This document shows, piece by piece, positions 38,532-40,018 of a stretch of DNA of 64,000 bases. The translations under genes and the position numbers were made by a program. The DNA is from Escherichia phage vB_EcoM_OE5505, in sequence record NC_054926.1; one strand, written 5' to 3'. The stretch's first letter is position 1. The number at the start of each line of letters is the position of its first letter. The notes beneath the pieces were generated by a model. That model saw nothing but the letters and a program-made list of their open reading frames with translations, searched no databases and was not told the origin of the DNA.

Positions 38532-39014
38532 TTATTTTATGTAATATTTATTTAAAAACTTTCTAGCTTGAGTATGGCTAACATTTATAGCGTTTGCATA
38601 ATTTTTAATAAAACCTCGTTCATCCATATTAAAATTTTCTAATATTTTTAATCGTCTAATTATCTCATCTTGGCTTAAGGTACTTGCATTATTTTTAGAA
38701 ATTTTTTCTAAAGACTGCACTGAGTGTTTTCGACCATTAAAATTAAAATTTTTAGGTTTTGGAGGAAATCTATCATTTAGTCTCGCATCTTTTGTATTTT
38801 GATTATTAGTTGCGCAATATATGTTATTTAATGAGTATGGTCCTTTATCACCAAAACGACACATACAGTATTCATGACCCTTTCTTCCACGCTTATCATA
38901 ATTTCCTGTTGATTTCCACCAATTTAACCACTCATCAAAAGTTAAATTCCATTCAATGTTTCTACGTATAGCAGAATTCCGCTGAGAAATATATTTTGCA
39001 TAATCTTCTTTCAT
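38532..39014 (-). CDS. Putative homing endonuclease-like protein with C-terminal HTH (160 aa)
   Basis: Inserted between tRNA genes; Cys/His-rich core GHEYCMCRFGDKGPYSLNNIYCATNN; C-terminal AINVSHTQARKFL resembles HTH of neighbouring HNH protein. Confidence 0.45.
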   Translation of the reverse strand: MKEDYAKYISQRNSAIRRNIEWNLTFDEWLNWWKSTGNYDKRGRKGHEYCMCRFGDKGPYSLNNIYCATNNQNTKDARLNDRFPPKPKNFNFNGRKHSVQSLEKISKNNASTLSQDEIIRRLKILENFNMDERGFIKNYANAINVSHTQARKFLNKYYIK

Positions 39015-39061
39015 CACAAATTTCTCTACTTATTACATGCACTAAGCTAAATCAGCAAAAC

Positions 39062-39151
39062 TGGCGGAGGCGATAGGATTTGAACCTATGAGTCGCCGGA
39101 GCGACTGCCGGTTTTCAAGACCGGTGCATTAAACCACTCTGCCACGCCTCC
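39062..39151 (-). tRNA. tRNA-Ser (anticodon UGA), long variable arm, CCA encoded
   Basis: Acceptor GGAGGCG/CGCCTCC, anticodon stem CCGGT/ACCGG loop CTTGAAA, long extra arm, T-loop GGTTCAAATCC. Confidence 0.85.
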
Positions 39152-39153
39152 AG

Positions 39154-39227
39154 TCTCCATACAAGGATTTGAACCTTGGACCTCCTGATCCCAAATCAGG
39201 CGCTCTACCAAACTGAGCTACACGGAG
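39154..39227 (-). tRNA. tRNA-Pro (anticodon UGG), CCA not encoded
   Basis: Anticodon stem CCTGA/TCAGG loop TTTGGGA; T-loop GGTTCAAATCC; 3' end directly abuts tRNA-Ser. Confidence 0.8.
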
Positions 39228-39237
39228 TAAATTAAAT

Positions 39238-39311
39238 TGGAGCGGATAATGAGAATCGAACTCACATCATCAGATTGGAAGTCTGAGGTAATGCCATTAT
39301 ACGATATCCGC
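39238..39311 (-). tRNA. tRNA-Gly (anticodon UCC), CCA encoded
   Basis: Acceptor GCGGATA/TATCCGC, anticodon stem TCAGA/TCTGA loop CTTCCAA. Confidence 0.85.
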
Positions 39312-39316
39312 AAATT

Positions 39317-39403
39317 TGGTGCGAGAAGTGGGACTCGAACCCACAAGGAAATCATTCCGCAGCATTTTAAGTGCTGTGCCTTTACCAATTTGACCATTCT
39401 CGC
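39317..39403 (-). tRNA. tRNA-Leu (anticodon UAA), long variable arm, CCA encoded
   Basis: Acceptor GCGAGAA/TTCTCGC, anticodon stem CAGCA/TGCTG loop CTTAAAA, T-loop GGTTCGAGTCC. Confidence 0.85.
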
Positions 39404-39409
39404 GCTATA

Positions 39410-40018
39410 TTATTTATTACGTGAAAAAGACTGTTCTATCAATTCTGGACACTTTCGTTCTATCCATTTTCTAGCTTTTTGTGGGCTTATACCTATTATT
39501 TTAGCAGCTTTACTAACCCATCCAAATTTAAAATAATCGATTTTAACTAATTCTTCGTAAATTTCATCAGTTAAAATCTTTTCATTAATATTTACCAGTA
39601 AATGATATAATTTATTATCATTAGCAATTTTAATGAATCTTTTATAGTTTCCGCCTTTACTTAAACCTAATGAAGTAATTGCAGATGATATAGTAGCCGA
39701 ATTTAATAGTGCGTTTAAAATTTCTTCATCACTAACATTATAACGCTTTCTATTATTTTTAATATTTTTACCAGCAAAAGTATCAGTTTGCGAATGGCAA
39801 TTTGGACATAATAATCTTAAATTTGATTTAAGATGATTTTTGTTATTTCCATCAATATGGTCTAATTGTAGAACAATATGCTTATTTTGCCATTTTGAAA
39901 TTTTACAAATTGCACACTCATATGGAAAAATATTTTCTTTTATTATTTTGTCTTTTAGCTTTCCTGTACTAAAATTTGGATGTTTTCCTTCAAAAATTTC
40001 AGCTAATTTAGTATCCAT
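39410..40018 (-). mobile_element. HNH homing endonuclease gene (202 aa from ATG) adjacent to tRNA-Leu
   Basis: Classic HNH motif LQLDHIDGNNKNHLKSNLRLLCPNCH; C-terminal HTH AAKIIGISPQKARKWIER; ORF-track start is TTG, ATG at 40018. Confidence 0.75.

Follow-up and report, generated by a model that had tools for sequence, protein, structure and literature searches.

Free-standing homing-endonuclease genes in the transfer RNA (tRNA) clusters of phages are already known from T4 (segB) and T5 (hegA-D). The gene for SegB, a GIY-YIG enzyme, is flanked by tRNA-Ile (or Tyr) and tRNA-Arg; in T4 x T2L crosses the enzyme cleaves tRNA genes and makes the T4 tRNA region home (PMC2330249). SegB cleavage also causes segmental amplification of tRNA-Tyr and enables T6 to evade Septu, and SegB homologues are enriched beside tRNAs (PMC13096335). 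Here we analyse two genes in the tRNA cluster of Escherichia phage vB_EcoM_OE5505 which occupy the same niche and, like segB, are present or absent among T-even phages together with a changed tRNA set, but which lie at the tRNA-Gln and tRNA-Thr positions, where SegB does not. The stretch analysed, referred to below as the window, comprises 64,000 nucleotides (nt) of record NC_054926.1. We conclude that the two genes are probably independent free-standing homing-endonuclease cassettes within the tRNA operon, each replacing one tRNA; the second would then be an active enzyme, and both would home to targets of their own.

The first-pass annotation, made from the window's letters, had placed two open reading frames (ORFs) in the tRNA cluster, and both were recovered there, on the minus strand like all genes of the region. 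Transcription order starts with trna.2 (40129-40416) and continues with the 202-amino-acid (aa) ORF, tRNA-Leu, Gly, Pro and Ser, the 160/161-aa ORF, and tRNA-CAU, Tyr, Asn, a 114-nt spacer, tRNA-His and tRNA-Arg. The main elements are the following.

39410..40018, minus strand: HNH endonuclease gene, 202 aa, T5 hegA-like, at the tRNA-Gln position (ORF list; phrog_14736)
39062..39403, minus strand: tRNA-Leu(UAA), Gly(UCC), Pro(UGG) and Ser(UGA), between both endonuclease genes (ARAGORN; Rfam tRNA 59-67 bits)
39317-39403, minus strand: tRNA-Leu (ARAGORN)
39062-39151, minus strand: tRNA-Ser (ARAGORN)
38532..39014, minus strand: modular endonuclease-like gene, 160 aa, at the tRNA-Thr position, called ORF161 if read from GTG at 39017 (ORF list; phrog_16521)
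38448..38522, minus strand: tRNA with CAU anticodon, starting 9 nt past the ORF161 stop codon (ARAGORN)

The upstream ORF spans 39410-40042 and ends 6 nt before tRNA-Leu; its likely start is the ATG at 40018-40016, which gives 202 aa, the length annotated in relatives. It had been called an HNH endonuclease directly upstream of tRNA-Leu, and this call stands. The protein matches PHROG HNH families, best phrog_14736 (E=7e-123), and contains the motif CxxC...DH...N...CxxCH, in which C35, C38, H54, N66, C71, C74 and H75 are invariant among its 16 full-length homologues. The Pfam HNH model aligns with residues 53-85 at 17.3 bits, under the 21.4 cutoff, and PF01844 is recorded in many of the homologues. 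Judged by its sequence, the protein is a canonical zinc-ribbon HNH endonuclease with the PF01844-type motif, presumably active as a nuclease. Weak Pfam matches to helix-turn-helix (HTH) models cover residues 173-200. Two segments of the gene are used below.

39794..39916, minus strand: HNH catalytic core with two CxxC zinc ligand pairs, residues 35-75 (CAIC...DH...N...CPNCH; sequence, invariant columns)
39434..39547, minus strand: C-terminal HTH-like segment of the HNH protein, residues ~158-195 (hhalign against the ORF161 family)

The nearest relative of this protein in a well-studied phage is ORF070 of T5, whose place in the T5 RefSeq record is that of hegA/T5.075; the two are 33% identical over 84% of the window protein. 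ORF070/hegA adjoins tRNA-Ile2 and tRNA-Ser3 in the T5 tRNA region, so that in T5 and T-even phages alike an HNH core with a C-terminal HTH is encoded directly beside tRNA genes within a tRNA cluster. The two phages belong to different families (Demerecviridae and Straboviridae, respectively), and the T-even gene occupies the exact place of tRNA-Gln. The HNH endonucleases of the T5 tRNA region are reportedly those described by Akulenko et al. (2004) as F-Tfl enzymes, and hegA may correspond to F-TflIV; GenBank records of ACG-C40 and BP32 label the T-even HNH gene F-TflIV-like. In T5 itself (NC_005859, extracted locus 1345-1979) the HNH gene hegD overlaps tRNA-Gln2(CUG), flagged in the record as a pseudogene, and hegC overlaps the end of tRNA-Ser2. 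Here endonuclease genes of an unrelated phage family may have damaged tRNAs in the same way.

Alignments of the window with relatives define where both cassettes begin and end. Identity with T4, T2 and ACG-C40 continues through the first seven nucleotides of tRNA-Gln and then breaks off; the HNH cassette extends from that point (tRNA-Gln is replaced from about nt 8 to its 3' end) to the last bases before tRNA-Leu. The ORF161 cassette begins after nt 16 of tRNA-Thr, replaces that gene from about nt 17 to its 3' end, and stops 9 nt before the CAU tRNA.

40025..40031, minus strand: 5' stub of tRNA-Gln, 7 nt (TGGGAAT), just upstream of the HNH start codon (alignment with T4, T2 and ACG-C40)
39041..39056, minus strand: 5' stub of tRNA-Thr, 16 nt (GCTGATTTAGCTTAGT; 15/16 identical to the intact gene of ACG-C40 and T4)

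In carriers the bodies of tRNA-Gln and tRNA-Thr are thus deleted, and since a stub cannot regenerate a tRNA, the tRNA alleles must be ancestral and the cassettes derived. The two aligned HNH carriers share one junction, as do the three of ORF161, which suggests that each cassette arose once and then spread. The tRNA-Gln stub includes a GGGA, spaced from the HNH start codon as a ribosome-binding site would be, and this may be the ribosome-binding site of the HNH gene. A longer tRNA-Thr remnant, reaching into the anticodon arm with ATG in the old anticodon loop, was considered and dropped (p ~0.10). An Rfam scan of 37900-40200 at a permissive E-value detected neither a partial tRNA at the stubs nor any other RNA family above threshold.

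These replacements account for part of an altered tRNA complement that the two genes had been suggested to explain, namely for the missing Gln and Thr. They do not account for the Tyr, Asn and His tRNAs that the window has in excess of T4, which belong to a segB-linked difference and to a separate His indel.

If the two genes are mobile, their arrangement should differ among close relatives, and it does. Over the 2.9 kilobases around both genes there is 100% identity with the Tequatrovirus Yersinia phage PYps5T (MT828552), and about 1,100 phage records match this stretch in part. We compared 11 Tequatrovirus loci, the window and ten fetched tRNA regions, all re-annotated by ARAGORN and tblastn, and found all four combinations of the two sites:

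HNH and ORF161: PYps5T (window), Lutter, T4_ev240, pSe_SNUABM_01 (the last with segB too)
HNH and tRNA-Thr: ACG-C40, a51, BP32
tRNA-Gln and ORF161: T2, VIPECOOM01, WL-3
tRNA-Gln and tRNA-Thr: T4

HNH and tRNA-Gln never occur together, nor do ORF161 and tRNA-Thr; for each gene, relatives have the intact allele without the endonuclease at that locus. Record counts show both cassettes to be the rarer alleles: HNH at 95% identity or more is found in 62 records, against Gln+Leu adjacency in 448 of 518, and ORF161 at the same threshold in 24, against Ser+Thr adjacency in 474 of 548. The tRNA cluster of pSe_SNUABM_01 (extracted locus 1794-4067) holds the HNH gene, an ORF161 homologue and a segB homologue (83% identity), along with only six tRNAs (Leu, Gly, Pro, Ser, CAU and Arg).

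The flanks were compared by mismatch matrices of three blocks (400 bp upstream, Leu-Ser and Met). In the upstream block WL-3, carrying tRNA-Gln, is identical to PYps5T, carrying HNH. Lutter (HNH) and VIPECOOM01 (tRNA-Gln) share an identical Leu-Ser block and differ at 97 positions upstream. Flanking haplotypes thus reassort around the HNH/Gln site, and the same cassette stands on different haplotypes.

The T2 copy of ORF161 (extracted locus 2243-2730), probably a pseudogene, contains two 2-bp deletions near its 5' end, which several independent records of T2 and SV76 show. Only a 133-aa remnant is annotated; such a frameshifted copy fits the decay stage in the life cycle of homing-endonuclease genes.

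Could both ORFs be passive cargo, left by old illegitimate deletion or insertion events and since shuffled by homologous recombination without endonuclease-driven conversion? T-even recombination rates are very high, the flanking tRNA genes offer near-identical homology, and neither cassette has swept, HNH being present in ~12% and ORF161 in ~4% of records. Moreover, the 2008 study of T2L described two ORFs of unknown function in its tRNA region, trna.1 and trna.2, whose markers were almost completely excluded in T4 x T2L crosses, each appearing in 0.4% of progeny (PMC2330249). Deposited T2 genomes, however, carry an ORF161 homologue between tRNA-Ser and tRNA-Met, the frameshifted copy described above; if the T2L ORF is the same gene with the same frameshifts, no active enzyme took part in those crosses, and they say little about an intact gene. 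Passive shuffling also leaves unexplained why both proteins keep complete endonuclease-type architectures under conservation, why the same families recur in tRNA clusters of T5 and of four Straboviridae genera, and why a third endonuclease gene in the same cluster also replaces a tRNA. With SegB homing at work at the very same locus, we regard passive cargo as very unlikely.

ORF161 lies between tRNA-Ser and the CAU tRNA, where the first-pass annotation had put it, and spans 38532-39017 from a GTG codon; the ATG at 39014, giving 160 aa, is the likelier start. Homologues in other Straboviridae genera retain 38-58% identity, for which reason we regard it as a real gene. It matches phrog_16521, of unknown function (E=2e-54), and has no match in Pfam or NCBIfam. 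Its earlier description as Cys/His-rich did not hold, the 161 residues including 3 Cys and 3 His. The cysteines vary within the family (C or V at position 51; C, A or S at 53; C or I at 68), and because of this ORF161 has no zinc-finger signature.

The N-terminal domain was searched against PDB with phmmer and in two profile searches, none of which returned a nuclease; matches to eL37 and DotZ were dismissed as noise. The sole HNH-type match of the domain is a weak one to a PHROG HNH family over residues 7-37 (E=0.008). Identity as a canonical HNH or HNH_3 (I-HmuI-like) domain was rejected, there being no catalytic His and no match to an HNH model of Pfam or NCBIfam. Two AlphaFold2 models, built from alignments of 16 and 149 sequences, have mean predicted local distance difference test scores (pLDDT) of 87 and 91, with 97-98 across most of the N-domain. 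Both predict two helices, a beta-beta-alpha unit (strands 50-54 and 66-70, helix 71-81), a disordered linker and then further helices, so that the modelled N-domain has the fold of a beta-beta-alpha-metal nuclease. A Foldseek search against PDB gave nothing at E<=0.001, PacI appearing at E=1.2.

38772..39017, minus strand: N-terminal domain of ORF161, residues 1-82, two helices and a beta-beta-alpha core

In this predicted core R54 stands at the catalytic-His place, Y61 lies in the loop, and N65 and N74 complete the motif. The spacing is similar to that of the window's HNH protein (R54-N65 = 11 and N65-N74 = 9, as compared with H54-N66 = 12 and N66-H75 = 9), which indicates that R54 stands where the catalytic His normally stands. 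A family profile was searched against 1.84 billion representative proteins clustered at 50% identity and retrieved 7,245 clusters at E<=1e-3, of which 5,249 at E<=1e-10. Conservation was counted over 178 domain instances from the best 163 family proteins: R54 and N65 are 100% conserved, G59 98%, Y61 97% (172/178), D57 96% and N74 95%. The N-domain thus appears to be a histidine-less relative of HNH nucleases, with a putative nuclease activity.

The closest described parallel is PacI, group 20 of the His-Me finger nucleases (PMC5714182), a beta-beta-alpha-metal nuclease that lacks the general-base His and uses instead a Tyr of the inter-strand loop (PMC5714182; PMC3384342). By its residues, the ORF161 family shares the His-less core with a loop Tyr, Arg occupying the catalytic-His position in 178/178 domains. 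The two differ in several respects: PacI is a homodimeric restriction enzyme with an 8-bp site and two Cys4 zinc sites per subunit, whereas in the ORF161 family no Cys is conserved and the domain is joined to DNA-binding modules typical of homing endonucleases. The PacI structures are PDB 3m7k and 3ldy. Neither phmmer nor the PDB profile searches detected any sequence or profile similarity between PacI and the N-domain; since the zinc sites are absent as well, we do not claim membership in the PacI group, and at best ORF161 resembles PacI in its mode of action.

The DNA-binding half of ORF161 is readily connected with known homing endonucleases. Homology to the NUMOD3+HTH tail of the GIY-YIG endonuclease of phage ECML-134 spans residues 92-157 (32% identity, BLASTP E=1e-14). 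That tail scores 20.2 bits with Pfam NUMOD3, just under the 20.4 cutoff, with a weak HTH match besides; ORF161 itself gives no Pfam NUMOD3 match, and its NUMOD3+HTH module is recognized by this homology. The family profile also matches the I-TevI DNA-binding domain 1i3j (E=0.011).

38688..38744, minus strand: NUMOD3-like motif of ORF161, residues ~92-110 (FNGRKHSVQSLEKISKNN; BLASTP to the ECML-134 GIY-YIG tail)
38544..38639, minus strand: C-terminal HTH of ORF161, residues ~127-158 (AlphaFold2 helices 136-143 and 148-158; hhalign)

Among 149 family representatives, the partner domains comprise NUMOD3 (15), the I-TevI DNA-binding domain (12), Sigma70_r4 (10), HTH_23 (5) and NUMOD1 (3), while another known nuclease domain occurs in one only. 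ORF161 shares its module order (catalytic domain, linker, NUMOD3-type element, HTH) with I-TevI-type enzymes, and differs from them in lacking a GIY-YIG catalytic module and in being free-standing rather than intron-encoded. These modules, together with a conserved N-domain at the catalytic place, give ORF161 the build of a modular homing endonuclease. In the set made up of ORF161, 15 homologues and 148 new representatives, 14 of 164 proteins carry a tandem double N-domain.

The HNH and ORF161 families moreover share their C-terminal HTH (hhalign probability 94%, E=1.2e-7, 41 columns). The match falls over exactly the two segments that had been quoted as related in the first-pass annotation. 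Pairwise BLASTP of both window proteins gives no similarity, and only profile methods reveal the shared HTH.

ORF161 might alternatively be a catalytically dead HNH-type derivative, kept for its sequence-specific DNA binding (for instance to regulate the tRNA operon or to direct another nuclease), with HNH as the only active enzyme. In agreement with this, the general-base His is gone, Arg standing in its place in all the domains counted, and no solved nuclease matches at sequence level. His-Me finger groups that keep DNA binding without catalysis are known, such as the Smad MH1 domain (PMC5714182), and mobE of T4 reportedly promotes the homing of a defunct endonuclease in trans (PMC2790892). 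One family member, P0066, combines an ORF161-type N-domain with a separate Endonuclease VII domain. Loss of catalysis can, however, hardly explain why five polar residues, located where an active site would be expected, are kept at 95-100% across several thousand clusters. Furthermore, 148 of the 149 representatives lack any other known nuclease domain, many of them bearing DNA-binding modules of homing endonucleases, and PacI is itself an active His-less version with a loop Tyr. Sporadic distribution and pseudogenization are typical of a selfish element. We therefore consider a dead ORF161 rather unlikely and retain the reading of two homing-endonuclease cassettes.

ORF161 homologues are also found in the tRNA clusters of three other genera:

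Karamvirus CkP1: homologue downstream of tRNA-Leu
Jiaodavirus KpV477: homologue between Tyr and Lys
Gelderlandvirus S16: homologue between Gln and Arg

A third endonuclease gene is known from the Tequatrovirus cluster itself. The GIY-YIG endonuclease of ECML-134, RB51, RB68 and AR1 (216 aa) is encoded between tRNA-Gly and tRNA-Ser and replaces tRNA-Pro; it has a GIY-YIG catalytic domain where ORF161 has the His-less beta-beta-alpha domain. The gene is variously annotated as segB, segD or 'homing endonuclease' (RB51, RB68, AR1, RB18 and others), and tblastn matches of ORF161 labelled 'segB' belong to it and not to T4 SegB. Neither window ORF matches the Pfam GIY-YIG model PF01541, and BLASTP of ORF161 against T4 SegB gives nothing, in line with the proposal that the invaders belong to families other than that of SegB. 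Given these different families and the three genes found together in pSe_SNUABM_01, the cluster must have been colonized independently, as had also been suspected.

N-domain relatives outside Straboviridae, for instance in Vibrio podophages, reside among protein-coding genes with no tRNA nearby. A tRNA-specific function of ORF161 was considered with these podophage relatives in view; their contexts indicate that the link to tRNA clusters belongs to the subfamily with the NUMOD3+HTH tail and not to the catalytic domain.

The same distribution bears on whether the cassettes are retained mainly for the benefit of the phage, by excluding competing T-even genomes or amplifying tRNA or anti-defence genes, with self-propagation being secondary. 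This subfamily does occur in tRNA clusters of four genera. SegB, with its amplification of tRNA-Tyr, the Septu escape and the enrichment of its homologues beside tRNAs (PMC13096335), gives a precedent, and it excludes the tRNA region of T2L (PMC2330249). Each cassette described here nevertheless removes a tRNA rather than adding one, the nine tRNAs that ARAGORN finds in the window are all single-copy, with no amplification seen, and the podophage relatives have no tRNA beside them. Such a benefit would in any case complement homing and not replace it. As the principal reason for retention we consider it clearly unlikely.

We propose the following course of events for the two cassettes. In a mixed infection, each enzyme would cut or nick the allele that lacks its cassette, within the intact tRNA gene or close to it. 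Repair by recombination would then copy the cassette from the carrier genome, whereby the tRNA gene and with it the target would be lost, and this loss would make the carrier immune to its own enzyme. These steps are modelled on SegB at the same locus and on other free-standing endonuclease genes of T4. A promoter and terminator scan was uninformative in this AT-rich DNA and showed no terminator between ORFs and tRNAs, so that both genes are probably co-transcribed with the tRNA precursor and would be released by tRNA processing. ORF161 would act like I-TevI, with NUMOD3 and HTH binding DNA and the linker connecting them to the N-terminal catalytic domain. In catalysis N74 would bind the metal, N65 would be structural, and Y61 and R54 would take over from His in the manner proposed for PacI; no other step of the scheme is as weak.

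Several points weigh against this scheme, in which nuclease activity, target sites and homing are inferred. The 7-nt stub of tRNA-Gln is short and could be due to chance or to microhomology at the junction, and the reassorted flanks could be produced by ordinary T-even recombination, which is frequent, without a targeted break. As regards ORF161, Y61 is replaced by Phe in 6 of the 178 domains, the Cys4 zinc sites of PacI have no counterpart in its family, and hhalign with the HNH family aligns only the C-terminal HTH, revealing no likeness of the N-domain to canonical HNH. Nor is tRNA replacement obligatory: the ECML-134 GIY-YIG gene (extracted locus 1510-2160) has left no tRNA stub, and the Jiaodavirus homologue, present in 8 records while in most relatives tRNA-Tyr is followed directly by tRNA-Lys, is a plain polymorphic insertion with no tRNA lost.

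Part of this picture has precedents beyond segB and hegA-D, as the HNH gene is already annotated as such in relatives. Three elements appear to be new, not having been found in the literature searched: the exact replacement of tRNAs by endonuclease genes at three Tequatrovirus sites; a DNA-binding tail shared by GIY-YIG and His-less beta-beta-alpha enzymes in the same cluster; and, as far as residue patterns tell, the place of ORF161 in a very large family of probable PacI-like modular endonucleases without a Pfam or NCBIfam model.

Tequatrovirus thus harbours at least three endonuclease cassettes that cost one tRNA each (HNH for Gln, the 160-aa gene for Thr, GIY-YIG for Pro) and assort independently. 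Such swaps offer a concrete cause for differences in tRNA sets among near-identical phages. As phage tRNAs counter tRNA-cleaving defences, gain and loss of tRNAs through endonuclease traffic could affect host range. An ORF that is also present in T2, whose tRNA-region ORFs were given no function in 2008, and that is still filed under 'unknown function' in PHROG, proves to be the local member of a very large Pfam-less family which joins classical homing-endonuclease DNA-binding modules to a His-less beta-beta-alpha domain. If this domain is active, the catalogue of homing-endonuclease catalytic domains would be broader, and many 'hypothetical proteins' of phage genomes would receive an annotation.

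A more far-reaching version of our proposal is tentative, and we would put it below an even chance. The N-domain might define a class of modular homing endonucleases, very large and represented in neither Pfam nor NCBIfam, with PacI-like Arg and Tyr in place of His and possibly a Tyr nucleophile. This class, along with the HNH and GIY-YIG classes, might use individual T-even tRNA genes as homing sites, and selfish traffic would then be a main determinant of the phage tRNA repertoire, which is known to influence escape from tRNA-targeting host defences.

Some further variation was noted around the two genes. The CAU tRNA downstream of ORF161 is called tRNA-Met by ARAGORN and tRNA-Ile in the Lutter annotation; the tRNA at the matching position of T4 is annotated as tRNA-Ile and is clearly different in sequence. 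In the window a 116-aa ORF (37634-37984; phrog_3355, unknown function) follows directly downstream of tRNA-Arg, where T4 has rnaC and rnaD instead. It is probably the T2L ORF trna.2, judging from a primer of the 2008 paper that resembles the start of the ORF.

The His indel mentioned above consists of tRNA-His and the preceding 114-nt spacer (window 38083-38272). The window, ACG-C40, a51 and VIPECOOM01 have it; Lutter, T2, T4_ev240 and WL-3 do not, and in these four tRNA-Arg comes directly after tRNA-Asn. The spacer holds a perfect palindrome, TGTGACA-AC-TGTCACA, at 38253-38268.

Upstream, an extra 171-aa ORF (phrog_2290), not found in the window, stands just before the HNH or tRNA-Gln position in a51 (extracted locus 3562-4077), T2 and VIPECOOM01. 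It adjoins trna.2 where trna.2 is annotated, and travels with a strongly divergent upstream haplotype that shows ~80-100 mismatches per 400 bp.

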